DNA of 21,136 bases, from IMG/VR virus record IMGVR_UViG_2667528074_000001, one strand, 5' to 3'. Below the pieces are notes generated by a model. It was not told the DNA's origin and made no database searches. It worked only from the letters and a program-made list of their open reading frames with translations. A program made the position numbers and the translations under genes. Below, in pieces: positions 387-20,956 of the stretch. The DNA is from a virus (Duplodnaviria > Heunggongvirae > Uroviricota > Caudoviricetes). Each line of letters starts with the position of its first letter. Position 1 is the first letter of the stretch.

Positions 387-409
387 AGTTTTTCTCGCGA
401 TAAATTAAA

Positions 410-955: not shown

Positions 956-957
956 TG

Positions 958-4231: not shown

Positions 4232-4236
4232 GATTT

Positions 4237-4770
4237 TCAGCCCATCGGTTGATCCGGCGTGTCAGTGATCCCGCCACCATCACCATTTTCGGTGTGTTTG
4301 TGGGCATTGTAGGTCTGCCGCATTTGCTGCATGCTGAGTCCGCCACTGTCGCAATTGTCAGTAATATCAGCGGTGGATTCGACAGGCATTTCAAAGCGCG
4401 CTTTAGGCGCGTTTTTAAAAATAATGGGCTTCCCGGCCCCGTTCACCACAATACCGGAACGGGTCAGGACAACGGACTGCCCCTGATCGTCATAAAGCGC
4501 CACTTCCCCACGTTTCAGTCCTTTCAACCTGTAACGTCTGTCAGACACGACCACAACCACACCATGAGAACGGTCGCCTGCCGGGAATAAAGCAACGCCC
4601 TCAGCACCGTTCTGTGCAGCAGATGTAAAACCATAAGGCTCAAGGTGCTCAACGTGTTGTTTCTGATCTCCGGCTATCATTTTCAACCCTACAGACTGAC
4701 ACTTTCTGGCGGAATCCACCGCCGTGATGACAGCCCGGGAAATCAGATTGCGAAGAGAAAACCCGTTCAT
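4237..4770 (-). CDS. Baseplate assembly protein V-like central spike (Mu gp45-like)
   Basis: 177-aa ORF with gpV-like features (GDRSHGVVVVVSDRRYR, then a Gly-rich tip KHTENGDGGGITDTP). Conserved position. Confidence 0.78.
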   Translation of the reverse strand: MNGFSLRNLISRAVITAVDSARKCQSVGLKMIAGDQKQHVEHLEPYGFTSAAQNGAEGVALFPAGDRSHGVVVVVSDRRYRLKGLKRGEVALYDDQGQSVVLTRSGIVVNGAGKPIIFKNAPKARFEMPVESTADITDNCDSGGLSMQQMRQTYNAHKHTENGDGGGITDTPDQPMG

Positions 4771-5825: not shown

Positions 5826-7213
5826 CTGACGGGTACCCTTAATGCCCTGACCGGAACAAAGCCCGGATGGGAGATGGCATTTCGATCCAGGATATCAGTT
5901 TCACGGGACGCATCGTCGTACCATGACGCAGCCAGAACAAGCGCAGGCAGAACCTCCGCTGGCGTTCGCTCTGCGGTTTCCTCCGTCTGAACCAGGCGCG
6001 CCTGAATATCCCGGTTCAGTTCTGTACGTAATGACGTCAGCTGAAAAAACAGCCTGTCATCCGTCGTCCGTCTGAGTTCCTGTTCAATCGCCGCGTTAAG
6101 CGATTCGCGTATGATGGTGAGATTTTCCCGCGTGGGTGGTTGTGCTGTCTCATTCTGCTCTGTGCTGGCAGTCACACTGTCAAGTGCCGGATGTGAAACG
6201 TGAATAATATCAGACTGACGCTCAGCAGAGCCGCCAACAGCCACAACCGCCTGCTGATTTTTCACCAGACTTCCGGGTTGCGGCAGTGAAGTGACCGCCC
6301 TTGCAGCCTCGCTGACTGCCGTCGTCCGGATGACTGCAGCCACCAGATTTGTCTGCTGTTTTTGCCTGACAACCGATGCGGAATCTGTGGGCCACACCGC
6401 GCGCGGTGCCAGTCCTGGATCCAGCGTAATACCGGACATTGTGGTTATGGACTGCACCAGATCCTGTGTGTTATCCACCAGTCTGGTTCCGGCCCGCCAG
6501 GTATCCTGCAACGTATGCACAAAATCACTGGCAAACGATGGCGGCATCAGAATGACGGACAAATCACCCTGCAGCAGCCTCATTCCGGCAGAAACAGCAG
6601 AATTAACCATTCTGAAAGCCGTCTGAACGGTTCCCAGCATATCGGTTGCCCGGACAATAACGTCGTTCTGAATAAAGTCCGGTATTCCCGCGAGATCAAA
6701 ATCGCCGAACATGTCTTCAATCAGCTCATCCAGGAATCCTGACGACTCCTCCAGTTTTCTGGCGGTTGCGGCTCCGGCGACCGGAAATGACAGCTCCCCG
6801 CTCTCAACAAACTGAAATGACACCCGGCACATACGGCCTTCAGTACCGGAATGAGAAACGGTCACCTGTCCGTCAATACAGCCCTGCATTTCACCGAACT
6901 GCGGATGGATCAGTGTCCCCGGCCCGGCGGTTTCAATCGCGGTAATCAGCCTGTCGCGCTGCTCTGCGTAATCATCACCAACGAGATACGCATTAATCGT
7001 CAGCCGTCGCGTGGCACGCCCGAGATCTTCCGTGTACGGTTTGTCACGGTCTGGATATTCATGGACCTGAACGCGACGTCCGAACGTACCCTCGTCGCTT
7101 TCCACTGAAAACGGAACACCTCGAAAAGAAGCGTCATAAAGATTATCGCGCCATGTCGTTCCGGAAGATGAAGAAAACAAAGAGGACAAAGAAGGTAAGG
7201 AAGGAAAATCCAT
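5822..7213 (-). CDS. DNA circularisation protein N-like (Mu gp43-like)
   Basis: 463-aa ORF immediately downstream of the tape measure gene, the conserved position of Mu N. N-terminal region (YDASFRGVPFSVESDEGTFGRRVQVHEYPDRDKPYTEDLG) is consistent with that family. Confidence 0.72.
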   Translation of the reverse strand: MDFPSLPSLSSLFSSSSGTTWRDNLYDASFRGVPFSVESDEGTFGRRVQVHEYPDRDKPYTEDLGRATRRLTINAYLVGDDYAEQRDRLITAIETAGPGTLIHPQFGEMQGCIDGQVTVSHSGTEGRMCRVSFQFVESGELSFPVAGAATARKLEESSGFLDELIEDMFGDFDLAGIPDFIQNDVIVRATDMLGTVQTAFRMVNSAVSAGMRLLQGDLSVILMPPSFASDFVHTLQDTWRAGTRLVDNTQDLVQSITTMSGITLDPGLAPRAVWPTDSASVVRQKQQTNLVAAVIRTTAVSEAARAVTSLPQPGSLVKNQQAVVAVGGSAERQSDIIHVSHPALDSVTASTEQNETAQPPTRENLTIIRESLNAAIEQELRRTTDDRLFFQLTSLRTELNRDIQARLVQTEETAERTPAEVLPALVLAASWYDDASRETDILDRNAISHPGFVPVRALRVPVR

Positions 7214-7228
7214 TCTGATATCCCATTG

Positions 7229-9178
7229 TTAACGCCTGAAAGGTGAATACCCAACGTCATGGGTGATTTTCATAAAGGGATCGCCTGTTTTCGGCAAATC
7301 GATGACACGCATTCCAGGCGGCGCGTTGTCAAACGTCACCTTAAGTTCGCTGCGGGTTGCCGGTGAAGATGAAAGGTTTAACAGCTGATTCCTTTCCAGT
7401 GATACATTCGGGGTGTAGCGTTTTTCTGGAGATAAATACCCATCACCACGTGGCATCTGCCATCCGGTCATGTCATAGACAAAATCATGGAACTGTTTGC
7501 CCCACTCGTCGAACTTATCATTCAGACCAAATCCACTGTTCAGCGCATCAGCCACAAAATTTTTAACAAGCCAGGGATGTTCTTTTTCAAACTCCTGCGC
7601 CATCATGCCGAGCTCAAGCAATCCCCCAATGAGGCTGATCTTTCCGAGGCCCTTTAATTTCAGGGATGTTTTACCTGCCGCCGCTGTCCATTGATTCTGA
7701 GCGGCTATTGCTGCACGAATGCTTGCCACCGCCTTCACACCAATATACAGGGCAGAAACCGTTGCTATTGTTTTTACTGCCTGTTCCCATCCCCCCATTG
7801 CTCTGACAACCTGATCAACCTCCTGCCAGACTTTTTTCACAACCGGCCCGACCGTTTCCCAGTTATCAATAATGAGATACGCCCCTGCCACCAGTAACGT
7901 AATGAGTCCCTTTGCCGGTGTCATATTCATCACACCACTAAGGATTTTTCCCATCCGCGACAGCGAGCCAATGGCAACACCAAATGTCAGCAGTGCCAGC
8001 CCCGTTTTCGCGATGGTTTTTACGACCTCAGGATTTTCTCTGACAAACGTGCGCACTTCTTCCAGAAAAGGCTTCATCTCTTTTATGCCTTCATTGAGTG
8101 AAGGCAGGAAGGTTTCCCCCAGCGTGGAAGAAATCGCATTGATCTGGTTCTTCAGCAGCAACAACTGGTTTTCCGTCGTCGCGGCACGGGCGGCATATTC
8201 TTTCTGCATTGAGCCGCCATACTGCTGCGCATCCGCCACACGATTAAAATTGGTTCGCAACAAATCCAGATTCGTGAGCAGCGGCGCGATGGCTCCCAGA
8301 GATTCCTTCCCGAACAGCGCATTCAGCACTGCAGCCTGTTTTTCTTTCGGCACTTTCGCCAGAGAATCCAGTACATGCAGCATGGCACCCCGGGCATCTT
8401 TCTGCATATCCGCCGCCAGCTTTTTCGGGTCAATGCGCAACAGGCGAAGCGCTTTTTTCTGCGATTTGGTGGCAGAATTCCCCGCTGTCAGCGACAGCAT
8501 AAAATTCTTTATCCCCGTCGCCGCAATTTCTGATTCCACCCCCATTCCGGCAATGGTTGCCCCCATTGCGGCAATCTCTCCGGAGGCCACACCCGCAACA
8601 CTGCCTAAAGGGCCAATACGGGTCACAACATCAGAAATCTTTTTCGCACTTGCAGGACCGGTATTACCAAGATAGTTAATCTTATCCGCAAGTCCTGCCA
8701 CCTCACCCTGTGTCAGTTTGAAGGCAGTGCGCCACTGTGCCATCATCTGACCGGATTCTTCCGCCGTGGTGTCAAAGGCCACCCCCATCTTCACGGCGTC
8801 GTCAGTAAACTGCATCAGCTCGTCACGGGCGATGCCAGCCTGACCACCCGCCGCCACGATTTCGGCGATACCTTCCGCCGACATGGGCAGTTCTGTTGAC
8901 AGGTCGCGCACCTGTTCCGTCATTGCCTTAAACGCTTCCGGCGTATCCAGACCATCCACCACTTTCCGGACATCCGCCATTTTTGATTCAAGGGCAATGG
9001 CAGATTTGACCGGGAGCGCCAGCGCCCCCAGTACTGCGGTTCCGGCACCCGCTGCGCCCAGTGACAGACTGGCAAACTCCTTTTTAAAGCCTTTCAGCTG
9101 GCGCTGCATCCCTTTCAGCGGTGCCGACACCTTATCCACGGCAGTGATGATCGCCTTCAGCTGAAAACTGTCAGCCAT
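7229..9178 (-). CDS. Tail tape measure protein
   Basis: 649-aa ORF, Ala/Gly-rich with predicted coiled-coil and hydrophobic segments. Follows the chaperone gene. ATG at 9178..9176 confirmed by eye. Confidence 0.9.
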   Translation of the reverse strand: MADSFQLKAIITAVDKVSAPLKGMQRQLKGFKKEFASLSLGAAGAGTAVLGALALPVKSAIALESKMADVRKVVDGLDTPEAFKAMTEQVRDLSTELPMSAEGIAEIVAAGGQAGIARDELMQFTDDAVKMGVAFDTTAEESGQMMAQWRTAFKLTQGEVAGLADKINYLGNTGPASAKKISDVVTRIGPLGSVAGVASGEIAAMGATIAGMGVESEIAATGIKNFMLSLTAGNSATKSQKKALRLLRIDPKKLAADMQKDARGAMLHVLDSLAKVPKEKQAAVLNALFGKESLGAIAPLLTNLDLLRTNFNRVADAQQYGGSMQKEYAARAATTENQLLLLKNQINAISSTLGETFLPSLNEGIKEMKPFLEEVRTFVRENPEVVKTIAKTGLALLTFGVAIGSLSRMGKILSGVMNMTPAKGLITLLVAGAYLIIDNWETVGPVVKKVWQEVDQVVRAMGGWEQAVKTIATVSALYIGVKAVASIRAAIAAQNQWTAAAGKTSLKLKGLGKISLIGGLLELGMMAQEFEKEHPWLVKNFVADALNSGFGLNDKFDEWGKQFHDFVYDMTGWQMPRGDGYLSPEKRYTPNVSLERNQLLNLSSSPATRSELKVTFDNAPPGMRVIDLPKTGDPFMKITHDVGYSPFRR

Positions 9179-9262
9179 GCTTCATCTCCTCGTTAATGCG
9201 GACGGCCTCGGCTTCCAGTTCTGTAAACTGCGAAATAGCCACCCGTCGCAGCTCCAGTGGAT

Positions 9263-9592
9263 TCAGTTTCCAGAACCAGGCAACATTGTAGAGTCGTTTC
9301 CGGAGGTGCTTCCCGTCTCCGACTGGGTAAAAAAACGCAGGATCTGCATGCTGGTCTTAAAAATATCCAGTTTTGCCATCTGCGCCGCCGATGAACGCGG
9401 GATCCCCGCCAGCAACGGGATATATTTCAGCGCCACCTGGCTGTCCAGTTTAATACTGCCCTCACCGGAAATAATGAAAGGAAAACCCAGGGCCTCGATT
9501 TCGTCATACGTGGGTTCACGCAACTCCAGCACATGCAGCGTTTCGTTATGCGCTGTCACCGGTTTTTTTAAAACAATTTCTGTCACGCTCAT
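9263..9592 (-). CDS. Tail assembly chaperone, zero-frame product (109 aa)
   Basis: ORF between the tail tube and tape measure genes. Contains the slippery T7 run at codons 87-88 (see regulatory feature 9329..9335 and findings). Confidence 0.72.
   Translation of the reverse strand: MSVTEIVLKKPVTAHNETLHVLELREPTYDEIEALGFPFIISGEGSIKLDSQVALKYIPLLAGIPRSSAAQMAKLDIFKTSMQILRFFTQSETGSTSGNDSTMLPGSGN
9329..9335 (-). promoter_or_regulatory. Predicted -1 programmed ribosomal frameshift site (slippery heptamer T TTT TTT)
   Basis: Minus-strand sequence CTG CGT TTT TTT ACC inside the chaperone ORF. The -1 frame is open from here for 52 codons to a TGA at 9173..9171, which overlaps the tape measure start. 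Confidence 0.6.
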
Positions 9593-9948
9593 TACTGATA
9601 TCCTCCCTCTTCGCCGTGGAATTCAAGATCTGCCGTACCTTCTTCGGCATTATGGTTTGCTTCGCCGTGCAGCCATGCCGCCGAAAGCACATACACCATG
9701 CCGTTTGCCAGCTCGGCAGTAATCGTCATCTGATCTGAGGTGGTAATTTTGTCGACCGGAAAATTTTTGGGCACTTTAAACGTGCCCTTAACGTAAGGTG
9801 ACCGCCAGGTCTCCTTGTAATCCACATCACCAGCCATGCCGACGACATCATCCCGGACATTGGTGTTCATCGGCACTTCAATTCCACCTGTCAGCGATAA
9901 CTGCTGACCATCCACTTTAAAAAAACAGGTTCCGGCGATCTTTGCCAT
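9592..9948 (-). CDS. Tail tube protein (Mu gpM-like)
   Basis: 118-aa ORF directly downstream of the sheath gene (1-nt overlap), the typical size and position for a myovirus tube protein. Confidence 0.8.
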   Translation of the reverse strand: MAKIAGTCFFKVDGQQLSLTGGIEVPMNTNVRDDVVGMAGDVDYKETWRSPYVKGTFKVPKNFPVDKITTSDQMTITAELANGMVYVLSAAWLHGEANHNAEEGTADLEFHGEEGGYQ

Positions 9949-11444
9949 TATGCTGACTCCTCTGAATACTGGAGACGGAACTGGTTAACCACCGCAAAGA
10001 CACGTAACTGGTTAACATAATCCGGCGGGAACAGCGTGTTCAGTCGGTTCGGGTTATCCGCATCACGCTCAACTGTCAGATACTGTTTAAACAGATCGTA
10101 ATTTTCCACAATACCGGCACGCTCCATCTGACGATATGTCGCCAGAAGCTCCCCTTTGATAACGGCAGGGGTGACAATCGCCTGCCCCGGACCAAAACGG
10201 GTACCATCATTTGCCAGCTTGTGACGTCCGTACTTGCTGGTGATGACCGTTCTCAGTTTGCGAAGAACGTATGCGCTGGTATGCAGTGTTTCACTGTCCA
10301 GATAGCTGTTGTCTGCCACACCATACGCATTCTTTTTGTAGGTGGTTACGGAACGCTGGATCCGCAACGTGCCACCTTCCACATAAGCCGTCGCCACGCC
10401 GTGAGATAAAAGAGTCTGCTGCTCTGTCATGATGAATCGCTTACCTTTCGGTGCCGGAAGCATCCCCACCAGTTCCCCCGTCTGTGTCGGACGGGCCGGG
10501 TCATTGCGGATAAATACCGCTTCACGGGCAAGGCGACTGGCAACCAGTTCATCGACAGGCGACTGGGTTTCTTTTTCGTAACCGGCAAGCGTGATATGTT
10601 GCTGATTATGCATATCTCCGGCATCAACCAGCTCTGACAGCGTTCCCAGTTTTGCGGTATAGACATGCCCGTATAACTGGCGCGCATAACTCCAGCGACC
10701 ACTGCTGTCATTCATTTCGGTCATCATCATATTGATGGAAGCGGCATCGTTAAACGGCAGACCGATAAAGTCGAATGCCTCATCGCCCATAGCAGCAACA
10801 GCGGCGGTAAGATCAGGCGCGCCGCTACCCGCAGTTCCGGCTTCCGTCACGACCTGAAGCCCCGCAGGCAGAAGCTCACCACCACCAGAACCATAATAAT
10901 TCAGGCAGACAGGCAACTCGTTACCATACAGCCCCTTATGGCGGGCAGTCAGTGTCACCACACCTGCATCAGATGACGCCGCAAACGGCAGGGTGATAAC
11001 CCCGTTTACCGCTTCCTTAATCGCGGTGGCAACCGCAGTGGCATCATCGCCATTCACCACAGGCACCTGTACACGGGAGCGCCCGACATACAGACTCAGG
11101 GTGCCGCTTTCCTCTGCTTCTCCGGTAACTGTCACCCTGACCGTCGCCGCCGCCCCTCTGGCTTCCGGTACTGCAATAACATACAGTTCACCGAAAGGAT
11201 CTGTCTGACGGTAGACGTCAACCATACGCGCCAGCTGGCTCCCGGCCCCACAAATCTGACGGGCATAATCTGCCGACGGCATCAGCACCAGGCTGTTAAC
11301 CTCAATGGCGGCATCGTTGCTGGCATGCCCGATCAATAATGCAGGCGCGCTGGTCACTGCTGTATTTGCCGCAGAATTGTCCATCTCGGCGTAGAACAAC
11401 GGCACCAGCGTATTCGACGGAACAGCACTAAAACTTATTGTCAT
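9948..11444 (-). CDS. Tail sheath protein (Mu gpL-like)
   Basis: 498-aa ORF. Size and position upstream of the tube and chaperone genes. ATG at 11444..11442 overlaps the stop of the preceding small ORF (ATGA). Confidence 0.85.
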   Translation of the reverse strand: MTISFSAVPSNTLVPLFYAEMDNSAANTAVTSAPALLIGHASNDAAIEVNSLVLMPSADYARQICGAGSQLARMVDVYRQTDPFGELYVIAVPEARGAAATVRVTVTGEAEESGTLSLYVGRSRVQVPVVNGDDATAVATAIKEAVNGVITLPFAASSDAGVVTLTARHKGLYGNELPVCLNYYGSGGGELLPAGLQVVTEAGTAGSGAPDLTAAVAAMGDEAFDFIGLPFNDAASINMMMTEMNDSSGRWSYARQLYGHVYTAKLGTLSELVDAGDMHNQQHITLAGYEKETQSPVDELVASRLAREAVFIRNDPARPTQTGELVGMLPAPKGKRFIMTEQQTLLSHGVATAYVEGGTLRIQRSVTTYKKNAYGVADNSYLDSETLHTSAYVLRKLRTVITSKYGRHKLANDGTRFGPGQAIVTPAVIKGELLATYRQMERAGIVENYDLFKQYLTVERDADNPNRLNTLFPPDYVNQLRVFAVVNQFRLQYSEESA

Positions 11445-11602
11445 GATTCTTTAGCCTTATCCTGTTTAACACGTACCACATCACCCGCCGCTATACGGCG
11501 AAGCCAGTAGCTGCTTTCTTCCACATTTCGCCCGTCTGAAGGCAAAAGGTCTCCACGGGCAGGGTCAGGAACTGACCGCCCTTTCAGGGGTTTCACAAAC
11601 AT
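11441..11602 (-). CDS. Small conserved phage protein (53 aa), possibly the Mu gp38-like short protein found upstream of the sheath gene
   Basis: Not in the ORF track (below 60 aa). Manual translation from ATG 11602..11600: MFVKPLKGRSVPDPARGDLLPSDGRNVEESSYWLRRIAAGDVVRVKQDKAKES. Its stop TGA overlaps the sheath ATG, and it fills an otherwise empty 168-nt gap. Confidence 0.5.
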   Translation of the reverse strand: MFVKPLKGRSVPDPARGDLLPSDGRNVEESSYWLRRIAAGDVVRVKQDKAKES

Positions 11603-11611
11603 AAGGGACTC

Positions 11612-12175
11612 TTATTTCTGAGGGAAACGCATTTCCAGATGGTGCTCAATGTCACCATCCGGGCCAGTACCAGGATCGATGTAATCCACATCAATACTCA
11701 GCAGGGATAAATCCGGCAGGGCATTCACGTCCTCTGCCTGTCGCGTGTCTCCTTCCGTGATTTCATACTTCGCCGTAAAGTCAAACTGGTAATACAGTTC
11801 GTAACGGTTCAGATCCAGCAGGGTGCCACCGGCATAAACAATCTCGCCCCCCTGCGGGTCCGGCATCCACCCAAGCAGGGCTTTCCAGAGTTCTCTCCGG
11901 ACATCATGAACGGCGTCATAGGCTGCCCACTGCCCCTTTTCATCACGCTCATTGCTGAGCACCACAATCACGGAAAAGCCTTCGGTCAAATCCTGCCAGT
12001 AATCGGTCTGTGATTTTTGCTCCCCAGGCGCATCGTCAGAGGGGACAACATAGGCAGCAGGCAGTCGCAATTTTCCGGCATCAGGGATCGCCTTAAACTG
12101 CGCCGCGCCACCAACCCGATTATCAAAACGCGGGCATCGCTCACGCAACGCCGCAATTATTGTTGTCAGTTTCAT
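11612..12175 (-). CDS. Neck / tail completion protein (Mu gp37-like)
   Basis: 187-aa ORF. ATG 12175..12173 overlaps the upstream stop (ATGA). Sits in the conserved neck region between the head-tail joining genes and the sheath. Exact family not verified. Confidence 0.65.
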   Translation of the reverse strand: MKLTTIIAALRERCPRFDNRVGGAAQFKAIPDAGKLRLPAAYVVPSDDAPGEQKSQTDYWQDLTEGFSVIVVLSNERDEKGQWAAYDAVHDVRRELWKALLGWMPDPQGGEIVYAGGTLLDLNRYELYYQFDFTAKYEITEGDTRQAEDVNALPDLSLLSIDVDYIDPGTGPDGDIEHHLEMRFPQK

Positions 12176-12696
12176 TTACGCTTCCTTTTTACCGGACGTA
12201 ACGAACGCTGCAGCTCACGGGACAACAGTTCCTGCGTCCAGTGACGCCGCCGCTCAATAACGTCAGCCATAAAGTTATTACGCGGGGCCAGCCGGAAAGT
12301 CGAAGAATGGTGCTTCTTCTGCCGCTTATCCTTTTTATCCATTCCATAAGCTGAATGGCGAACGCCGTAATACAGAAACGCCGGATAATAAGGAGCGCCT
12401 TCAGGAAAACGGCGATTCCCCTGCCCGTTTTTCTGGTCAGGGGAAATTTTCACCATCAGCCCGGGACGACGCGTCGTTTTTTTGGGAACGTAATAACCAA
12501 TGGAGCGGGCCAGACGCCCGGTCTGATACCCCGGGTTCTCTCCCGAGCCGGAACGCCCGCGTTTAATCACCAGACGTCTGGCGTCACGCATGTAAACGCG
12601 CCCGATTTGCACAAACGCCCGACGCAGACGGGCGCGATTAAACTCCAGCTCCTTTGGTTGTTTAAAGTCGACGTGTAAAAATGCTGTCTGATTCAT
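12172..12696 (-). CDS. Virion morphogenesis / neck protein (family unverified)
   Basis: ORF track 12172..12735; start placed at the internal ATG 12696..12694 (MNQTAFLHVDF...), which has a GGGGTG SD-like motif. It still overlaps the upstream gene's 3' end. Basic C-terminus. Confidence 0.6.
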   Translation of the reverse strand: MNQTAFLHVDFKQPKELEFNRARLRRAFVQIGRVYMRDARRLVIKRGRSGSGENPGYQTGRLARSIGYYVPKKTTRRPGLMVKISPDQKNGQGNRRFPEGAPYYPAFLYYGVRHSAYGMDKKDKRQKKHHSSTFRLAPRNNFMADVIERRRHWTQELLSRELQRSLRPVKRKRK

Positions 12697-13078
12697 GGCA
12701 TTCACCCCGTCGTCGCGCTGTACGCAGTTCTTCACATTCCAGTAATAAAAAACGCCGCTGACCGTTCAGGTCGCGTATTCGCCGGATCCGGTACTCCTGA
12801 CCGTAATAAACCACCTCATGATCTGCCGTGATGTCGTGACGGAAACGGATCGTAAAATAATGTGTAACGATATTTTCTGTCTGCACTGAGCCCTGATAAG
12901 CAGCAGCGCCTGGCTGAGCCACCTTTGCCCAGACATCAAACGACTCCGGATACGTCGGCTTCGTACCAAAATCAGCGGTGGGTTCATCCACACGGAGGCG
13001 GATCTTTATCCGGCGATTCAGTTCTCCGGGATCCGGTAAAAGGTAAGTGGCACTGGTCTGACTTTGCCTGATTTTCAT
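12662..13078 (-). CDS. Head-tail joining / head closure protein
   Basis: ORF track 12662..13111; start placed at ATG 13078..13076 (MKIRQSQ...), which forms an ATGA overlap with the connector gene's stop. Sequence (WAKVAQPGAAAYQGSVQTENIVTHYFTIRFRHDITADHEVVYYGQEYRIRRIRDLNGQRRFLLLECEEL) fits the recalled head-tail joining family signature. Confidence 0.78.
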   Translation of the reverse strand: MKIRQSQTSATYLLPDPGELNRRIKIRLRVDEPTADFGTKPTYPESFDVWAKVAQPGAAAYQGSVQTENIVTHYFTIRFRHDITADHEVVYYGQEYRIRRIRDLNGQRRFLLLECEELRTARRRGECHESDSIFTRRL

Positions 13079-13398
13079 AGAGGCACAATCCTGTAAGGAC
13101 CAGCGAGCCATCTGAAACTCACTGGCGTTTCAAGTTTCTCAACATCGGTACTCGCTGAACGATTTTCATAAAAATGACTGACCAGCATCAGCATGGCCAG
13201 ACGAACGTCATCAGTCAGATGCATCCCGTCAGGATCATCTTCCGGAATCGTCTCTTCCGGTGCATACAACTTCCTGTTCAGGTATGTCTCTGTTCTTTTC
13301 TGTACCGCCTGTGCCAGCAATTGCAGAAAATCGCCGTCACTGTACAAACCATCATCGAGCCGGAGGTGAGATTTAATCTCCTCTTCTTTCAGGAGCAT
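13075..13398 (-). CDS. Head-tail connector protein (gp6-like)
   Basis: 107-aa acidic ORF immediately downstream of the major capsid gene. ATG 13398..13396 is preceded by AGGAGG. Confidence 0.75.
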   Translation of the reverse strand: MLLKEEEIKSHLRLDDGLYSDGDFLQLLAQAVQKRTETYLNRKLYAPEETIPEDDPDGMHLTDDVRLAMLMLVSHFYENRSASTDVEKLETPVSFRWLAGPYRIVPL

Positions 13399-13408
13399 AT
13401 TTTCCTCC

Positions 13409-13432
13409 TGTGCCCGCCATTACGCGGGCACA
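13409..13432 (-). promoter_or_regulatory. GC-rich stem-loop in the capsid-connector intergenic region (RNA structure; attenuator or mRNA-stability element)
   Basis: Minus strand after the capsid stop reads TAA TGCGG TTTTTTTT GTGCCCGC-GTAATG-GCGGGCAC AGGAGGAAAAT ATG. An 8-9 bp perfect stem sits just 5' of the connector SD. The preceding short CCGC..GCGG stem plus the T8 run could act as a weak terminator. Confidence 0.4.
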
Positions 13433-13444
13433 AAAAAAACCGCA

Positions 13445-14668
13445 TTACGCAGCGGCTTTCTGGCGGGTTGCAGCCCCAATTTTCATCAGCTTAATCGCCT
13501 GAGAATCCACCAGCATACCGCCGGTTCGCTTGGTGGTATAAAAACCCACGAACGGCTTGTTGGTATACGGGTCGCGCAGGATACGGGTACCGATGCGATC
13601 AACGATGGTATAGCCACGTTTGAAGTTACCAAACGCAATGGCTTTTGCATCGGTGGCAATATCCGGCATGTGCTCATTCTCAACAATGCCATACCCCGCC
13701 AGAGAAGAAGGCTGACCCAGCTCAATACCCGGACGCCACAGATAATTTCCTTCGTTATCTTTCAGCAGACGAATGGCAAACAGGCTGCTGTTGTTCATCA
13801 TGAACTTCGCGCCGCTGCGGTGCGCCTTGCGCAGGGTGTAAATCAGTTTAATGATCGCATCGGCGGTCACGCCGGAAGCCGCACCGGAAGCAATGTGCTG
13901 AAGTTTGCCAAACGCACGGGTCTTGTCATCTTCATCGGTGGACTCATAAGCCAGAAAACCTTTTGGTTTTTTGCTGCCGTCGCCACTGGTAAAGGCAATT
14001 TCTTCCTGTTCGGCAAATTCCAGCGCCAGCTCACTGTTGATCCAGTCTTCCACATTGAAGAAAGCATCATCGAGCATTTTCTGGGTGGCCTGCGGGTTGC
14101 CGTAGATTTCCCCCATAAAGGGTTCAATCAGCCCCAGTTTTGAGGTGGCGGTTTCCGGACGTGCATCCGTTTCCCCCACCCATCCGGACGTTGTGCCGCC
14201 CAGATTCACCAGCTTTTTATAATCCGAGCCCCCGAGGGTGATCACAGTGGCTTCCTGGCGCATCACCACCTCATCTTTCAGTAGCGTCAGAATGGTGCGA
14301 TCCAGTTCTTCCGGAATGGCATAACCACCATCCTCATCATTGCCTACCTGCAGTGCCTTACGCTCAAGCTCACGCAGGCCGTCTTCACGCCCCTTGCGCA
14401 TAAATCCGATAAACGCTTCTTTATGTTCACCGGCAACTTTATTTTGCGTGCCACCTGCCGGACGCTTGACTTCAGCCAGCTCAGCCTCAAGATCGTTTTT
14501 GAGATTTTCCAGCTCAGCCAGTTTTCCGTTGAGGGTTTCCACTTCACCAGCAAGTTTTCCCTTTTCCTGCTCAATCGCGTCGATGCGTTTGTCGTTTTTT
14601 TCCTTAAAATCGTCGAATTTCGCCTGCAGCTCCTGCGCGACCTGCTCCACATCTTTAATGTCAGCCAT
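13445..14668 (-). CDS. Major capsid protein, HK97 family (with N-terminal delta/scaffold-like coiled coil)
   Basis: 407-aa ORF. N-terminal ~100 aa is a Glu/Lys/Leu-rich coiled coil (AQELQAKFDDFKEKNDKRIDAIEQEKGKLAGEVETLNGKLAELENL), followed by an HK97-fold-like region. AGGAGA SD 6 nt upstream of ATG 14668. Confidence 0.92.
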   Translation of the reverse strand: MADIKDVEQVAQELQAKFDDFKEKNDKRIDAIEQEKGKLAGEVETLNGKLAELENLKNDLEAELAEVKRPAGGTQNKVAGEHKEAFIGFMRKGREDGLRELERKALQVGNDEDGGYAIPEELDRTILTLLKDEVVMRQEATVITLGGSDYKKLVNLGGTTSGWVGETDARPETATSKLGLIEPFMGEIYGNPQATQKMLDDAFFNVEDWINSELALEFAEQEEIAFTSGDGSKKPKGFLAYESTDEDDKTRAFGKLQHIASGAASGVTADAIIKLIYTLRKAHRSGAKFMMNNSSLFAIRLLKDNEGNYLWRPGIELGQPSSLAGYGIVENEHMPDIATDAKAIAFGNFKRGYTIVDRIGTRILRDPYTNKPFVGFYTTKRTGGMLVDSQAIKLMKIGAATRQKAAA

Positions 14669-14682
14669 TATTTTTCTCCTGG

Positions 14683-15333
14683 TTAAAATTTAAGATTTTT
14701 CAGTGCATTCAGTGCGGCATCCACATCCTCAGCATCACGCAGGGATAAAGCGCCATATCCCCCGACCATGAATGCTTTGGCCTGGGTTCGCGAGAGTCCA
14801 ACATCGCGCAGGACCCGCTCAATAATTTTCTGATCGGGGATCTCCCCACGTGCCAGCGCATTTTTCACATCGCTGATACGTGCCTCATCATTGGAAGGAA
14901 ACGTCACCAGACTGACCTCCCACAGGTCGATCTCTTTCAGCAGGAATACCCCTTTTTCACGGTCGTATTCCCAGTCTTTCAGGATGTAGCCAATAGAAAG
15001 GCCGGTTAAAGAACCGGCCTTCATATGGGCATGTGCACGTTTTGCCAGGGGATCATCATCAACGAGTAATCGCCCCCTGACGTAAAGCCCGACATCATCT
15101 TCTTTCATTTCGGTGTACACACCGATGGGCTCATCCATACGGTGCTGCCAGAGCAACGCAGGCAGCGCCTTTTTTTCGCTCCATTTCTGGAGTGTTGTGG
15201 TAAAGGCACCGGGGACCACCACATCATCGTGGCTGTCCTTAACACCAAAAACAGAACCGTAACCTTCAAATTCCCCGGAATCACTGACAGATTTCAGGTT
15301 CAGCGGTATATCAAGACGCTGTTTTGTCTGCAT
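14683..15333 (-). CDS. Prohead maturation protease, HK97 family
   Basis: ORF track 14683..15363; start placed at ATG 15333 (MQTKQRLDIP...), preceded by AAGGAGAGTGGAG. Motif GYGSVFGVKDSHDDVVVPGAF is typical of HK97-type prohead proteases. Lies between the portal and capsid genes. Confidence 0.88.
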   Translation of the reverse strand: MQTKQRLDIPLNLKSVSDSGEFEGYGSVFGVKDSHDDVVVPGAFTTTLQKWSEKKALPALLWQHRMDEPIGVYTEMKEDDVGLYVRGRLLVDDDPLAKRAHAHMKAGSLTGLSIGYILKDWEYDREKGVFLLKEIDLWEVSLVTFPSNDEARISDVKNALARGEIPDQKIIERVLRDVGLSRTQAKAFMVGGYGALSLRDAEDVDAALNALKNLKF

Positions 15334-16552
15334 CTCCACTCTCCTTTTTCTTACCGTTGTCATCGCCAGCAGAGGGACTGGTGGTCATGTTCATCGGTGT
15401 CAGATACACATCACCGCCCGGTCGGGGATTCATATCTTCCAGATCACGGCAGTCATTAGGGGAATAAATGCCCCAGTTAATCCCCGTGGCATACGCTTCA
15501 AATCGGGATTTCATGTCGCCACGTAACAATGCTCCGGCATTAAATTTGGCGTAAAATCTCCCCTGTTTACTCTCCCTGACCAGCCCCGTATTGATCCGCT
15601 GTTCAATACGGGTCAGGTACGGCACAAGGGAATAGTTAATGAAGCCAAGCCCCAGTTCTTCAATATTGTTGAAGGTGGCGCGATCAGTGTTCTGCACCAT
15701 ATGCAGTGGCACGCGGAACAGGCGACAAATTTCTTCCAGCTGAAACTTGCGGGTTTCCAGGAACTGGCTGTCCTCGGCATTCAGTGCCACCGTTTTCCAG
15801 TCCAGCCCCATTTCCAGAATCATCGGACGATGAGAATTTCCCAGCCCGACATGCCGTTCCTCAAAGTCCTTTTTGATACGCGCATAAGCCTGATCAGAAA
15901 GTTGTTGATCCGTACGCAACACACCGGATGTCACCGCGCCGTTACCAAACAACCTGGCGCCGTGCTCCTCAGTTGCCGCTGCCAGTGAAATGGCCTCACG
16001 CGCATACGCAATCTGATTCAGCCCGACCAATCCGTCCAGCGTAAGAGTGCGCACATGCCAGATTTCATCCTGGGTCAACACATCCACGGAACCATCCGGA
16101 AACGTCACCTGATAAACCGGCTGCCACTGGCTGTTCAGCTTCGGTTCCACACAGCCCGGATCTATCGGAAGAAGCTCCACCACTTCCCCCAGTGCCTTTA
16201 CCTTGTAGGCGTAAAAATTACCCCGCAGACACAGGCAGACAATGACCAGTTCCCAGAATTCCTGCGGCGTCATGTAACCATTGGGTTTTGCCGAAACCAG
16301 CTTATGCAGTCGTTCATCCACCGCCCGTGTTTTAAGGGTACCGGTGATTTTGTAGAGACTGCAGGGCAGCATACCAACAGACTCCGCCAGCACCCTGACG
16401 CAGGAATAGACCGCCGTCAGCCGCATGGCCCGTTGGCTACTGATCCGCTTTCCGGTATAGGTGTCGTATGACAGCCCGATAGCATCAGCCAGTTCTGCTG
16501 GCGTGGTCACCGGCGCATCACTTTTTCGTTGAAATAACCCCGAAAAGAACAC
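15311..16552 (-). CDS. Portal protein, HK97 family
   Basis: 413-aa ORF downstream of the large terminase. Start codon is GTG at 16552..16550, preceded by GGAGG with a 6-nt spacer, and overlaps the stop of the upstream small ORF (TAGTG). Confidence 0.9.
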   Translation of the reverse strand: MFFSGLFQRKSDAPVTTPAELADAIGLSYDTYTGKRISSQRAMRLTAVYSCVRVLAESVGMLPCSLYKITGTLKTRAVDERLHKLVSAKPNGYMTPQEFWELVIVCLCLRGNFYAYKVKALGEVVELLPIDPGCVEPKLNSQWQPVYQVTFPDGSVDVLTQDEIWHVRTLTLDGLVGLNQIAYAREAISLAAATEEHGARLFGNGAVTSGVLRTDQQLSDQAYARIKKDFEERHVGLGNSHRPMILEMGLDWKTVALNAEDSQFLETRKFQLEEICRLFRVPLHMVQNTDRATFNNIEELGLGFINYSLVPYLTRIEQRINTGLVRESKQGRFYAKFNAGALLRGDMKSRFEAYATGINWGIYSPNDCRDLEDMNPRPGGDVYLTPMNMTTSPSAGDDNGKKKESGDADKTAS

Positions 16553-16734
16553 TATTTACCTCCGCCGACAGACTGCCGCGTACGGTCGAGATATCGCGCC
16601 ACCAGCCACGACCAGAACAGGCACAACGCCCCGGCAACAACAAAACCCGCCGGGGGATAAATCAGCCATGTGCCATACGCCAGCAAAAGCGCCCCCAGCA
16701 CGCCCACCAGTGGCGTGAGAATTATCAGAAACAT
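16552..16734 (-). CDS. Small predicted membrane protein (60 aa, two hydrophobic helices) between large terminase and portal
   Basis: ATG 16734..16732 preceded by GAGG (5-nt spacer), 11 nt after the large terminase stop. Stop overlaps the portal GTG. Sequence [60 protein letters not shown]. Confidence 0.5.
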
Positions 16735-16745
16735 AATGACCTCGG

Positions 16746-18503
16746 TTAAAGCGAGCGGATACCAACGCTGACCAGATGCTCAGACAGATCCGGCTCCGGT
16801 TCACCGCCATTGACCAGCATCCGGCTCATTGCTGTAAACATCGCAACAGGACCGTCGATTTTGGCTTCCGGCGTGGATTTATTCGGGAAGATATTGTCGT
16901 TTTTATCCGGTTTCACCGTAACGTTAGACATCATCCAGTTCATGACCGGGTGATTGCTGTGGTGGAAACGTCCGGCATAGACCAGTGATTCCGTTTCCTT
17001 CATGGCCTCTGACAGATTGCGGACCGTCTGCGGAACCTCCACCAGCGGTATCCCTTCTTCAGCCAGTGCCAGGCTGAACTGCATCGCACTCCACGGGTCA
17101 AATCCCAGTTCCCTCAGGTTTTCACCACCAATCCATTCCAGTAAGTCACTTTTTATCTGAGCATGATCGATAACATCACCATCCGTCAGGATGAGCTTAT
17201 CCATCTCCGCCCACTTCCGGTAAAGTTCTGCCTGCTGCCGTGAACACCGTTCCAGTCGCCCTTCCGGAAGCCAGAATTTAAAATCGGCATGAACATGCCC
17301 GTTATCCGTTCGCCAGAGTTTTGCCGCCGCACAGATATCAATCTTATGAGCAAGGTCGACGCCGACCCACATGGGATACGTTTTCAGCTCATGCTGTGGA
17401 GCGATGTATTCACACTTCCCCCACTTAATCATGTCCATCCAGGCAGACTCGGCAGTGACCCACACATTCATGTGTTTGGTAAAAAAATTCACCCGCGCCG
17501 AGACCTGTTCCTTCGCCTTTTTCGCCAGACGACGCAAATCATCCCAGCGTTTACAGATGCCCAGGCCCGGATTCGCTTTCTGCCAGACCGTTTCATCAAA
17601 CGGATCATCTCCCTCATCGAGCGTGTAAATAATCGCAAAGTAGGAGTCGTCTTTTACCGCGCCCTCCACGTCGCTGTTATAGCCTCGTAATACCTTGATG
17701 GCGTAATCGCGTTGCTCGTAACAAATCCCTTCCTTGTTAAAGCCCGCCGTGGTGATACCAAATAACAGGGACTGCAGACGGGCACCGGTTGCCGTTTCCA
17801 GAACGTCCCACACGTCGCGGGTTTTATGTGCATGCAGCTCATCAATAATGGCGCAGTGGATGTTCAGACCGTCCAGGTTGTTTGCATCCGAGGAAAGCGG
17901 TTCAAATTTTGATGCGCTCTGCTCCTGGTAAATCGCCAGCTTGTTGAAATCAAACAATCGCCCGAGTGTCGGCCTGGCTTTTCTGACCATATTTTTGGCG
18001 TCTTCAAACACGATTCTGGCCTGGTCACGCGTGGTTGCGGCTGAATACACCTCAGCCCCGCCTTCACCATCTGCCCCCGTCATATACAGACCGATACCCG
18101 ATGACAGGGTTGATTTTGCGTTTTTACGGGCGACTTCGTTGTACGCCGTCCGGAACCGGCGCACCATCACTGGGCGTCCGCTGCCATCGCTGCGCATGAC
18201 AACTTCCCCGGTCTCTTCATTCACCAGCGGAATGACAAAACCAAAAATATTAATGAGGATAAATACATGCCAGTCCATCAACTCAATGGGCTGACCTGCC
18301 AGCGCCCCTTTTACATGGGGCACAAATTTGTAGAAATTCAGGATGTGCTGCGCACGGGGTTCACTGAAATAAATCCCCCGCTCTTCGCCGTACTTCAGAT
18401 CATCAAGAAAACGCTGGCAGGCCAGACGGACAAATTCGCCAGCGACAATTTCTCCTGCAACAACACGTTCGGCGTAGCGGATCCCGTCAGCCACTTTTGC
18501 CAT
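16746..18503 (-). CDS. Terminase large subunit
   Basis: 585-aa ORF. ATPase motifs present (Walker A-like VARKNAKST, Walker B-like [10 protein letters not shown]) plus a C-terminal nuclease region. ATG 18503 overlaps the small terminase stop (TGATG). Confidence 0.93.
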
Positions 18504-18985
18504 CAGTCTCTCGCTTTTAAAAGTTCCGCCAGCGGATCAACATCATCCGGTCCGGCGGTATTTACTTTCGCCCGGCTTGCCGGTGACATACCAAACTCTG
18601 CAAGCATCGCCCGGATCCGCTTCCAGGCATCCGCTTTCATCGCCGCAGCCGGATGTGCCTTGATCATCACATCGCCATTCTGCGTTTCCGTGCGGTAGGT
18701 ATAACCCTCAGCATCGAGTGTTTCGCAGTGATGCCGGTATTCGGTGTAGGCTTCCACCAGTAACTCGAGTGCACGCGCATCAAGCTGAGAAATGATCCCT
18801 TCCGCATTCAGCTCTTCCGCCATTCGCCTGAACCAGTACTTCCCCTGCGCCCCTAAATGTTGCGGAATTTTAGGGAGACCTTTTTCATCCTTTTTAGCGG
18901 TTTTTTTGTGGTCTTTAACGGGGCGCTTCGAGGGGTTGCCTCGAATCAAATGCAGGCGTGGCGGGGTTTTCGGGGGTCCTGACAT
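18503..18985 (-). CDS. Terminase small subunit (P27 family)
   Basis: 160-aa ORF. N-terminus MSGPPKTPPRLHLIRGNPSKRP is typical of P27-type small terminases. Immediately upstream of the large terminase. Confidence 0.85.
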   Translation of the reverse strand: MSGPPKTPPRLHLIRGNPSKRPVKDHKKTAKKDEKGLPKIPQHLGAQGKYWFRRMAEELNAEGIISQLDARALELLVEAYTEYRHHCETLDAEGYTYRTETQNGDVMIKAHPAAAMKADAWKRIRAMLAEFGMSPASRAKVNTAGPDDVDPLAELLKARD

Positions 18986-19132
18986 AATCGGTTTTACCTA
19001 TCAATCGTTTGATCGCATTCCCAAAAAAAAGTTTTCGAACCTGCGGCGATGCGAAGAAGGGTTGGCGGGCGGTCCCGGACAGCCAGGGCTGCAGGGATTT
19101 GACCCGCCCCTCCCAACAAGTGAGAATAATTA

Positions 19133-19483
19133 TCACTTGATTCGTTCGCGCGCTGTTTTCTCTTTGTGGCAGGGCCAGCACAGACTCCGCAGGTTGCTGT
19201 CTGCGTCTGTTCCGCCATGCGCTTTCGGGATGATGTGGTCGACAGTTTTCGCCTCGCTCACCACACCGACACGCAGACACAACTGACACAGACCTTTATC
19301 GCGCTTCAGAATACGGGCACGAATCACCGTCCATTTTGAGCCATAACCACGCTGGTGGCGGCTCAGTCCGCGCTGGTGCTGTGCCCAGCCTTCACCACGA
19401 TGTTTATCGCAGTAGCCAGAACTGTCTGTCGTTGTGCCTGCGCAGCCTCGCTTACGGCATGCGCGGGGGATCCGTGATGGCAT
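19133..19483 (-). CDS. HNH endonuclease (packaging-associated)
   Basis: 116-aa ORF. Cys-rich N-terminus (CRKRGCAGTTTDSSGYCDKH) and HNH motif (VDHIIPKAHGGTDADSNLRSLCWPCHKEK). Position directly upstream of the small terminase is typical of HK97-like cos phages. Confidence 0.9.
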   Translation of the reverse strand: MPSRIPRACRKRGCAGTTTDSSGYCDKHRGEGWAQHQRGLSRHQRGYGSKWTVIRARILKRDKGLCQLCLRVGVVSEAKTVDHIIPKAHGGTDADSNLRSLCWPCHKEKTARERIK

Positions 19484-19542
19484 AGAATTTCACTCTCCTG
19501 ATGGTAAAATAACCATTCCTTAAAAACCTATACGGAGAACAA

Positions 19543-19755
19543 ATGAAAAATACTATTTCAAAAGGATTTCACCGGACAGGCGTTCTGTTGGCTATTTTGG
19601 TGTTGATGTTGAGCTTTGGTTTCTTTTTATTAACAGGTGCTGGTACAGGAATCTCGTTATTTGCTGTATTAGTTTCCCTGGTATGTGCCTTACTGACATA
19701 CGGCATACTCAGACTGGTCGGATGGGCCGTTAACGGATTCATAAAAGATAACTAA
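19543..19755 (+). CDS. Small membrane protein (70 aa, two predicted TM helices), moron-like, opposite orientation to the late operon
   Basis: ATG 19543 preceded by GGAGA (6-nt spacer). Sequence MKNTISKGFHRTGVLLAILVLMLSFGFFLLTGAGTGISLFAVLVSLVCALLTYGILRLVGWAVNGFIKDN. Followed by the stem-loop at 19765..19789. Locally AT-richer than the flanking structural genes. Confidence 0.55.
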   Translation: MKNTISKGFHRTGVLLAILVLMLSFGFFLLTGAGTGISLFAVLVSLVCALLTYGILRLVGWAVNGFIKDN

Positions 19756-19764
19756 AACATTATC

Positions 19765-19789
19765 GCAGCCCCTCAGTGTGAAGGGCTGC
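19765..19789. terminator. Stem-loop between convergent genes (putative bidirectional intrinsic terminator)
   Basis: Plus strand GCAGCCCCTCA-GTG-TGAAGGGCTGC: an 11-bp stem (one mismatch on the plus transcript, a G-U wobble on the minus transcript), followed by moderately U-rich sequence on both strands. Lies between the stops at 19755 (+) and 19801 (-). Confidence 0.55.
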
Positions 19790-19800
19790 TGTAATGCCTG

Positions 19801-20193
19801 TTACTCACGAATCAGGCGAGCACTCTTACCATTCATTTCAATACGCGAATACTGCGGTTTACCATCAATGATGTCTGTCATTACGAACACCTCACCCGGC
19901 TGCAGTTCAACTGCACCTTCCGGTAATTTCATACCGGCAAATACCGGACAGCCCGGATGGCGATCATCTTCTGTTGCTTCCAGCATTGACTCACCAAACC
20001 ACGCCGTTGTAGCGCGACCATCAGCAGCCTTGTAGTGGATCAAGTACTGGTTTTCGCCATCCGCATACTGCGCGCGGGCTTTAACCTCACCCCATTCATC
20101 ACTGATGCGCATCTCCACCAGTTGTGACAGTTCAAACTTAAACGGAGCAGCCACAGCACCAATTACCATTGGTTTGTCTTCTTTCTTTTCCAT
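19801..20193 (-). CDS. Hypothetical protein (130 aa), function unknown
   Basis: ORF track 19801..20244; start placed at ATG 20193..20191, preceded by AGGAGA (5-nt spacer). Acidic, soluble-looking, no recognisable motif. Followed by the 19765..19789 stem-loop. Confidence 0.65.
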   Translation of the reverse strand: MEKKEDKPMVIGAVAAPFKFELSQLVEMRISDEWGEVKARAQYADGENQYLIHYKAADGRATTAWFGESMLEATEDDRHPGCPVFAGMKLPEGAVELQPGEVFVMTDIIDGKPQYSRIEMNGKSARLIRE

Positions 20194-20367: not shown

Positions 20368-20550
20368 TCAGTTCTGCATGCACTGCCGGACACCGTCGAC
20401 AATTTCACAGACCTGAGAAGCTGTATCGAAAAACTGACGCGCCTTATCCAGGCTGACGCATCCCACCAATAAAAAAGGCACCAGTATCGCTACCAGTGCC
20501 CATTTCGCCGCCGTTCGCGGCATTCTGTGTGTCCAGTGTTTTCGCTTCAT
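20368..20550 (-). CDS. Putative small lipoprotein (60 aa)
   Basis: ATG 20550..20548 (MKRKHWTHRMPRTAAKWALVAILVPFLLVGC...). Basic N-region, hydrophobic core and a lipobox-like LVGC, followed by a ~30-aa mature part with two more Cys. The ORF track's longer form starts at TTG 20565. Confidence 0.5.
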   Translation of the reverse strand: MKRKHWTHRMPRTAAKWALVAILVPFLLVGCVSLDKARQFFDTASQVCEIVDGVRQCMQN

Positions 20551-20554
20551 CTCG

Positions 20555-20689
20555 CTATCCACCAATCAATCCGGATAAGCTCAATACTCGCCAGGCGGTG
20601 GAAATGAAAATGGCAACCAACATTGCTGAAAATGAAAGGCCAACAACCACACAGAGAATTCGCGCCAGTTTTATAATGCTATCTGACAT
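20555..20689 (-). CDS. Small single-TM protein (44 aa)
   Basis: Internal ATG 20689..20687 of track ORF 20555..20782. Sequence MSDSIIKLARILCVVVGLSFSAMLVAIFISTAWRVLSLSGLIGG. SD-like AGGGGT upstream. Ends 4 nt before the lipoprotein ATG. Confidence 0.4.
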   Translation of the reverse strand: MSDSIIKLARILCVVVGLSFSAMLVAIFISTAWRVLSLSGLIGG

Positions 20690-20706
20690 ATTTACCCCTG
20701 CCCCAC

Positions 20707-20853
20707 TTACGATTTCACAGCAATGATCAATTTTGCCATCCCATACAGCATCGGAGACACAGCGATACCGACCGCCACCCACTTAATGGCAAAAGCCACC
20801 GCTCTGCTGATGTCATCAGTTACAGGCGCTTTCAATTCAAGGCCGTTTTTCAT
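20707..20853 (-). CDS. Small protein with hydrophobic C-terminal half (48 aa)
   Basis: Internal ATG 20853..20851 of track ORF 20707..20889 (MKNGLELKAPVTDDISRAVAFAIKWVAVGIAVSPMLYGMAKLIIAVKS), GAGG 7 nt upstream. An alternative ATG at 20889 is preceded by AGGAGA with a short spacer. Ends 17 nt before the next small ORF. Confidence 0.35.
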   Translation of the reverse strand: MKNGLELKAPVTDDISRAVAFAIKWVAVGIAVSPMLYGMAKLIIAVKS

Positions 20854-20926
20854 AGTCAACCTCAACAGAATTAGTTTATACTTCCTCATGTTCTCCTTTG
20901 CCTTACCCAGGGCCAGAAACAGAAAA

Positions 20927-20956
20927 CCCCGGGCTGTTACCGCAGCCGGGGTTTTT
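20927..20956. terminator. Intrinsic terminator-like hairpin with T5 tract (bidirectional)
   Basis: Plus strand CCCCGGGCTG-TTACCG-CAGCCGGGG followed by TTTTT (9-bp GC-rich stem with one bulge). On the minus strand the same hairpin is followed by TTTTCTGTTTCTGG, about 100 nt downstream of the partial gene stop at 21050. Confidence 0.6.

Follow-up and report, generated by a model that had tools for sequence, protein, structure and literature searches.

The window considered in this report, that is, the whole stretch of 21,136 nucleotides recorded as IMG/VR virus IMGVR_UViG_2667528074_000001, is the late region of a phiP27-like Escherichia coli prophage reading on the minus strand, and the sequenced phage nearest to it is the Stx2e phage phiP27. 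The minus-strand gene order comprises tail fibre and assembly, baseplate, tape measure, sheath, head, portal, the large and small terminase subunits, and an HNH endonuclease. The subject of this report is a small open reading frame (ORF) on the opposite strand, 19543..19755 (+), which begins with ATG and encodes a 70-amino-acid protein. It is divergent from the HNH endonuclease gene (19133..19483, minus strand; Pfam HNH 6.7e-16, phrog_144 1.3e-42), the first gene of the packaging module, from whose start it is separated by 59 nt (19484..19542). On its other side, a GC-rich stem-loop (19758..19796, core 19765..19789) starts 2-9 nt past the stop codon and is common to the ORF and a convergent late-region gene of 130 amino acids (19801..20193, minus strand; phrog_1935 7e-68), which resembles L33 in the phiP27 annotation.

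A preliminary description, made by reading the nucleotide sequence, had reported the ORF at this position, with two hydrophobic helices around GAGTG and the 59-nt distance to the HNH start, and had called it the only well-supported plus-strand gene of the window. All of these particulars were confirmed. The interval 410..19483 was found to be tiled by minus-strand ORFs, and the two longest other plus-strand ORFs (9177..9722 and 7872..8675) overlap minus-strand ORFs and had no PHROG match, so the statement that the gene is the only well-supported one on its strand stands. The ORF at 91..408 has the look of low-complexity antisense sequence.

When six alleles from E. coli, E. albertii, Citrobacter and a heat-labile enterotoxin type II (LT-II) prophage were compared, the pairwise ratio of nonsynonymous to synonymous divergence (dN/dS) was 0.13-0.33, with dS between 0.25 and 1.5 and mostly 0.7-1.5. 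Differences among the alleles compared fell at codon positions 1, 2 and 3 in the numbers 272, 168 and 516, respectively, and 51 of 63 third positions were variable compared to 31 first and 21 second positions. The reading frame was kept in homologues down to 23% identity, and those of 23-40% identity retained H10, R11, G13, Y53 and W61. Conservation in related prophages, the lack of which had been named beforehand as grounds for abandoning the gene, was therefore found both as purifying selection among alleles and as distant homology.

The possibility that an AT-rich spacer contains the ORF by chance, or as the mirror image of a gene on the minus strand, was weighed against these data. One antisense frame is open for 54-67 codons in every allele, and of the 16 complete genomes with an allele, 6 lack its annotation in RefSeq. 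However, it is the sense frame that shows the low dN/dS and the predominance of third-position variation, and more than 200 homologues of the sense protein share conserved motifs, whereas the antisense 'proteins' are hydrophilic low-complexity strings. Since sense-frame dS is approximately 1, synonymous change is near saturation and leaves no room for a second, overlapping constrained frame; the antisense-gene explanation was rejected, the open frame being a by-product of codon composition. A non-gene origin is scarcely credible and is effectively refuted by the selection data together with the number of homologues. These findings indicate, at the level of sequence, that the ORF is a real protein-coding gene under purifying selection.

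The exact 70-amino-acid protein is UniProt A0A0Q3DEX4_ECOLX, a 'hypothetical protein', and was found on 147 contigs and in 290 index blocks. The exact allele is common in draft assemblies and is present in one 5.4-Mb chromosome (CP055981.1); it occurred in no genome of the complete RefSeq E. coli set (5,426 genomes), where the top DNA identity was 74.8%. An intact, unannotated allele of 68 amino acids was seen at 3063..3269 of locus L017, from E. coli O8:H8 16F5M1D1, and in five other RefSeq genomes. The three O8:H8-type genomes with an unannotated allele include a prophage encoding heat-labile enterotoxin IIA.

In a four-way DNA alignment, the gene was seen to lie in an inserted cassette of approximately 260 bp, with approximate limits 19500..19757 (+), that comprises promoter, 5' untranslated region (UTR) and coding sequence; phiP27 has approximately 9 nt at the same place. 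The slot was found in three states. In phiP27, the HNH start codon and its ribosome-binding site run straight into the conserved hairpin; in the window and in E. coli A8, the slot holds the plus-strand ORF; and in E. coli TUM1881, it holds an unrelated minus-strand gene of 98 amino acids (phrog_4827; L003 2905..3201, minus strand), which indicates that the slot is a general cargo site. The flanks are 88-94% identical among phiP27-like prophages compared to only 71-75% DNA identity among the ORF alleles. Among the 5,426 complete E. coli genomes, the flanking HNH/L33 region was present in 337 and an allele of the ORF in 16. The GC content of the cassette was 38%, compared to 52% for the window and 58% for the HNH gene, which places it in the lowest 0.6% of 213-nt windows. 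Likewise, GC content at third codon positions was 0.41 in the ORF and 0.56-0.59 in the head genes.

Upstream of the gene, the hexamer TAAAAT (19505..19510) had been pointed out as a possible -10 for which no convincing -35 could be found. The hexamer is present as described, but the TG at 19502..19503 had been overlooked; together they make an extended -10 element, TGgTAAAAT (19502..19510, plus strand), with a predicted transcription start near 19517 and a 5' UTR of approximately 26 nt. Extended -10 promoters are a sigma-70 class that tolerates a poor -35, and the TGn motif accounts for the absence of one here. Because a standard -35/-10 scan does not score this element, it returned no promoter upstream of the ORF. 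A weak -35-like hexamer, TAGAAT (19483..19488, plus strand), lies at a 16-nt spacer and matches TTGACA at three of six positions; its role as a -35 is putative. The first base of the HNH start codon falls within it, and TAGAAC or TAGAAT is retained even in the LT-II prophage, where the HNH gene is not adjacent.

On either strand of the window, 19502..19510 was the sole match to TGNTAAAAT or TGNTANAAT. Moreover, GATGnTAAAAT was invariant in about seven distinct alleles at 20 loci, carried by E. coli, E. albertii, Citrobacter and LT-II-prophage alleles, and the free position n alone varied (G, T or C) while the coding sequence of the same alleles diverged to about 71-75% DNA identity. The LT-II prophage keeps the element though its upstream neighbour is a Nu1-type terminase region and not HNH. 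The sequence-level evidence for an autonomous promoter, predicted at TGnTAAAAT, is strong. The Shine-Dalgarno sequence that had been reported for the gene was also borne out: GGAG (19534..19537, plus strand) stands 5 nt before the ATG, and GGAG or GGAA is present in all alleles.

The same upstream region bears on whether the gene could encode a membrane-damaging toxin, acting as an abortive-infection or addiction effector or as part of a type I toxin-antitoxin-like module held down by antisense transcription of the late strand. The protein is small and very hydrophobic, the convergent layout guarantees an antisense RNA whenever the minus strand is transcribed, and Hok/Gef genes occur elsewhere in the same prophage family. 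Known type I toxins are mostly shorter than 60 amino acids with one helix, and their mRNAs have long folded leaders. In contrast, the product studied here has 70 amino acids, two predicted transmembrane helices and conserved polar motifs, and its predicted 5' UTR of only about 26 nt is unstructured (-1.5 kcal/mol, z +0.3). The window as a whole gave no match to Rfam, the protein matched neither HOK_GEF or another toxin family in Pfam nor any PADLOC entry, and the promoter scan found no dedicated antisense promoter. Neither the single helix nor the dedicated antisense small RNA nor the long structured leader of a type I system was found, and a toxin role is improbable.

The stem-loop downstream had been described as strong, as shared with the convergent gene and as the terminator of the small gene. 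The first two points held. Folding energies were -21.7 kcal/mol on the plus strand (z -3.5) and -27.2 kcal/mol on the minus strand (z -6.0), both far beyond shuffled controls. The third did not hold. On the plus strand, the stem is followed by CCUGUUACUC, with no U-tract; the minus strand continues past the stem with UUUUAGUUAUCUUUU, whose UUUU comes from the 3' end of the ORF. The stem-loop was also found without the ORF, in phiP27 and TUM1881 in the four-way alignment and in cdtI, phi458, Fels-1, a Stx2k phage, and Klebsiella and Actinobacillus phages, and none of the latter group encodes the protein. Its presence in phages that lack the gene, and the restriction of the U-tract to the minus strand, argue that it is a backbone element marking a module boundary and not the gene's own terminator. 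In genomes that bear the insertion, it looks more like a terminator of minus-strand read-through, and on the plus strand it would form only the 3' stem of the mRNA. The cassette thus appears to borrow a resident stem-loop. Since the plus strand has no U-tract, a canonical intrinsic terminator does not account for the end of the small transcript.

As an observation on the stem-loop itself, the arrangement GCAGCCCCTC-loop-GAAGGGCTGC-TGTAATG was 84-95% identical across the phages of unrelated hosts named above, phiP27 (L001) and cdtI (L053) among them, and is present in L003. In those phages, it always stands just past the last gene of the right arm, shortly before cos or the packaging genes, and it is the exact joint at which different cassettes are exchanged. 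A terminator, an RNA-stability element and a recombination joint are candidate roles.

Morons are defined as evident additions to the genome of a phage, with deviant GC content and their own promoter and terminator, that are expressed from the repressed prophage (PMC3594210). The DNA studied here is absent from close relatives (phiP27 and most phiP27-like prophages are without the ORF), its base composition deviates by the amounts given above, and it carries a window-unique, invariant extended -10 that is predicted to be its promoter; the hairpin that follows belongs to the backbone. The earlier proposal that the gene is a moron was accordingly sustained in its presence or absence among relatives, low GC content, opposite orientation and conserved promoter element, and not in the possession of its own terminator. 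By comparative criteria, the feature is a moron, situated between the lysis and packaging genes, and the earlier interpretation as a whole is partly supported. That it is an independently transcribed moron encoding an inner-membrane protein is very probable.

The checks proposed with the preliminary description included a membrane topology prediction and a structure-based homology search. The hydrophobic stretches were placed at residues approximately 12-32 and 37-57, around GAGTG at residues 32-36, and the net charge was +3 for the N-terminus, 0 for the loop and +1 for the C-terminus. Hydropathy and charge together gave two helices, and under the positive-inside rule both termini are predicted to be cytoplasmic, which would place the conserved residues described below at the cytoplasmic face. 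An AlphaFold2 model was likewise a helical hairpin, with helices at residues 2-31 and 39-66 and a mean predicted local distance difference test score of 79.9. The protein is thus probably a two-helix membrane protein with both ends inside. The structural search returned nothing significant: Foldseek against BFVD and PDB gave only hairpin look-alikes with E>1, and the best E value of a PDB profile search was 0.036.

This topology raises the question of whether the gene belongs to the adjacent lysis cassette and takes part in lysis timing, as class II holins, pinholins and antiholins do. The first two, of which S21 of phage 21 is an example, have approximately 70 amino acids and two transmembrane helices with both ends in the cytoplasm. 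The protein encoded here resembles them in length, helix number and predicted topology, and its gene adjoins lysis genes in many loci. In contrast, it lies in all loci on the strand opposite the holin and endolysin genes and is transcribed against the late operon, and its C-terminal tail is short and nearly uncharged, unlike the charged tail of the class II holins. It matched no holin family in Pfam or PHROGs. The prophages already encode Phage_holin_8 and Phage_holin_3_7, and the gene is dispensable in phiP27, which lyses without it; some family members reside on plasmids or islands. A role in lysis timing is very unlikely.

No family of Pfam, PHROGs, NCBIfam or PADLOC matched the 70-amino-acid protein. 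A single weak match to DUF6050 (E=0.009) was below the cutoff and was obtained with only 1 of 55 family members; it was treated as a chance hydrophobic match. In contrast, an exhaustive profile search of 1.84 billion representatives recovered 100 cluster representatives at E<=1e-3, most of them 65-80 amino acids long and aligned from end to end, and a second profile search recovered 229 proteins, none of them named. The family is marked by GFHRxG just before helix 1, an invariant tyrosine in helix 2 and R..GW...GF at the end of helix 2, with 33-49 residues between G13 and Y53. The window protein has all of these residues, namely G8, F9, H10, R11 and G13 (GFHRxG at residues 8-13), Y53, R57, G60, W61, G65 and F66. 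In an alignment of 55 sequences, the motif columns were 80-100% conserved. Column entropy fell to its lowest values, 1.3 and 1.1 bits, at the two motifs of the cytoplasmic side and rose to its highest, 3.2 bits, in the loop, which was the most variable region, with inserts as long as about 90 residues. Fusion of the module to other domains, or insertion in the loop, was seen in some members. Searches of three subfamily members against 50,697 phage records by tblastn and of the window protein against plasmids gave no match, and a literature search on the protein accessions found no mention of them. As far as these searches extend, the family with the motif GFHRxG...Y...R..GW...GF has been neither described nor annotated.

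The close family, with 54-100% identity to the window protein, was always found at the junction of lysis and packaging genes and, whenever HNH was present, 59-60 nt from it, while downstream neighbours, Q genes and tail modules varied among the loci. A search with the close-family alignment returned 13 viral contigs and one Citrobacter braakii species representative, and nothing else. More distant members were found in other settings. P0031 (31% identity) and P0113 (23%) both occupy the slot between lysis genes and terminase on the strand opposite the late genes; their prophages have a MuF/DUF4055-type and a lambda GpA/Nu1-type head module, respectively. P0114 (36-39%) forms an overlapping, translationally coupled operon with an HTH_3 regulator and ParA, and P0117 (25%) is carried by 150-kb conjugative E. 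coli plasmids, where it adjoins fimbrial and transposase genes. The most distant members (about 28-33%), on Alphaproteobacteria-like contigs, lie in small clusters of hypothetical genes, one of them by an integrase, and were uninformative. The lambda-like prophage that bears P0113 has a second antisense cargo gene, between Q and holin, encoding a defence-like AAA_15/AAA_21 ATPase of 651 amino acids (L026 8279..10234, plus strand).

These distributions can be read in two ways. One is that the hairpin is a lysogenic-conversion factor which would tune a host sensor kinase, transporter, protease or respiratory component of the inner membrane through its cytoplasmic-face motifs; MgrB, SafA, AcrZ and MgtS are small E. 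coli membrane proteins that modulate host membrane proteins. The concentration of conservation at the cytoplasmic membrane interface, opposite a periplasmic loop that is the most variable part, is in keeping with such a role, as are the domain fusions and loop insertions, which suit a membrane-anchoring or interaction module, and the members on plasmids, on islands and in Alphaproteobacteria-like chromosomal regions outside recognisable prophages. However, no partner is known, the neighbourhoods outside phages are not conserved, and the fact that three lambdoid lineages captured it in one and the same antisense slot speaks for an advantage linked to carriage by phages. Modulation of a host protein is the main alternative to phage exclusion, an appreciable possibility though an unlikely one. 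The other reading is that this is a family of small membrane proteins of mobile elements, captured independently into the antisense 'bor slot' by at least three unrelated lambdoid head-module lineages. They may represent a new class of carrier-state inner-membrane effectors, for example in superinfection exclusion or anti-phage activity from the cytoplasmic face, with the periplasmic loop hypervariable through an arms race. We put this forward tentatively, as possible and well short of probable.

Taken together, the best explanation of the locus is a self-contained moron of approximately 260 bp that provides an inner-membrane factor in the carrier state, to which we assign a probability of roughly 0.6. 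Host sigma-70 RNA polymerase would transcribe the gene constitutively in the repressed prophage from the -35-independent promoter, with transcripts starting near 19517 and ending at or past the backbone hairpin. Upon induction, late transcription antiterminated by Q would run convergently through the gene and shut it down. The protein would insert in the inner membrane with both ends in the cytoplasm, so that GFHRxG and Y..R..GW...GF lie together on the cytoplasmic side and variation is permitted in the periplasmic loop. It would benefit the carrier state through protection of the lysogen at the inner membrane, the favoured mode being exclusion of superinfecting phage DNA or of phage entry. 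Two aspects of context count in favour: the association of P0114 with HTH_3 and ParA and of P0117 with conjugative plasmids, and the recurrence of the antisense lysis-terminase slot in P0031 and P0113, likewise used by lambda bor. Superinfection exclusion itself, suggested by analogy with HK97 gp15 and P22 SieA, is the favoured function but a doubtful one.

Several observations weigh against this explanation. As to transcription, the -35 is poor, and the plus strand lacks a U-tract after the hairpin, which is not part of the inserted cassette. As to exclusion, no homology to known superinfection exclusion or defence proteins was detected with PADLOC, Pfam, PHROGs or Foldseek, and the conserved residues are predicted to face the cytoplasm and not the periplasm, where incoming phage components are first met; the argument for this function is one of analogy. 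As to the carriers, some members lie in apparently non-phage chromosomal regions, and the identical 70-amino-acid allele was found with both myovirus-type and siphovirus-type tail modules, so that any exclusion would not be tuned to the tail of the carrier itself.

Other features of the window were noted in passing. The 130-amino-acid L33-like gene is a chimera, with a match to phrog_1935 over residues 1-115 and to phrog_8025 over residues 104-130, and its C-terminus is ...ARLIRE compared to ...VTE in the phiP27/A8 type, which indicates a recombination joint within the 3' end of the gene. Three small minus-strand genes in tandem at 20368..20889 may encode accessory envelope or lysis proteins; they specify a 60-amino-acid protein (20707..20889, phrog_1115), a 44-amino-acid single-helix protein (20555..20689, phrog_4906) and a 60-amino-acid protein with the lipobox LLVGC (20368..20550, phrog_7528). 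A 'terminator' reported by a pattern scan at 20476..20501 (minus strand) falls within the region encoding the signal peptide of the lipobox ORF (WALVAILVPFLLV) and may be a coincidence of coding sequence. A hairpin at 20918..20952, AAAACCCCGGGCTGTTACCGCAGCCGGGGTTTTT, lies between the 60-amino-acid gene and a gene ending near 21050; with an A-run and a T-run on its sides, it has the look of a bidirectional intrinsic terminator. The late region has a second small membrane protein, of 60 amino acids and YmfR-like (16552..16734, minus strand; phiP27 L37), encoded between the large terminase subunit and portal in late-gene orientation and belonging to phrog_502, which is filed as 'moron... membrane protein'.

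Morons are the store in which temperate phages keep genes for host phenotypes such as virulence, serum resistance and phage exclusion, and the one described here is carried by relatives of Stx2e-converting and LT-II-converting prophages of pathogenic E. coli. A promoter prediction, a set of invariant residues and use of the slot in three phage lineages make the gene a cheap experimental target. Should phage exclusion prove true, it would represent a compact new exclusion family; should nothing be detectable, it would be one more small-protein moron.

Among known systems, lambda bor, with which the preliminary description had compared the gene, is the closest in arrangement. In the lambda record, bor is antisense to the late operon and lies right after the lysis genes (Rz) and before cos and terminase, so that position and orientation agree exactly; both genes encode a small envelope protein and are dispensable additions. 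Bor is expressed from the prophage (PMC3594210). The likeness does not extend to the products. Bor is a secreted outer-membrane lipoprotein of 97 amino acids, whereas the window protein is a predicted two-helix inner-membrane hairpin without signal peptide or lipobox, and no Bor-family Pfam match was found; the two proteins are unrelated in sequence and fold. HK97 gp15, which is YebO-related, is a small inner-membrane protein whose gene is a moron within a lambdoid prophage's late region; homologues also occur outside phages, and its exclusion activity was demonstrated (PMC3594210). The window gene is similar in that its product is small and predicted to reside in the inner membrane, in its place in a lambdoid late region and in having homologues outside phages. 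It differs in that gp15 is located in the tail operon and not at the lysis-cos junction, and in that exclusion is suggested for the window protein by analogy; no homology to gp15 was detectable, and no match of known function was found in Pfam or PHROGs. P22 SieA and T4 Imm, both encoded by phages, reside in the inner membrane and act on DNA as it enters; the gene for SieA lies in the immI/early region of P22. The window protein is unrelated to both in sequence and size, and it matched neither in PADLOC, Pfam or PHROGs. SieA is described as an inner-membrane exclusion protein expressed from the prophage (PMC10883804). Set beside these systems, the kind of element is well known, namely a moron that occupies the bor slot of a prophage and encodes a small membrane protein, and the protein family is new.

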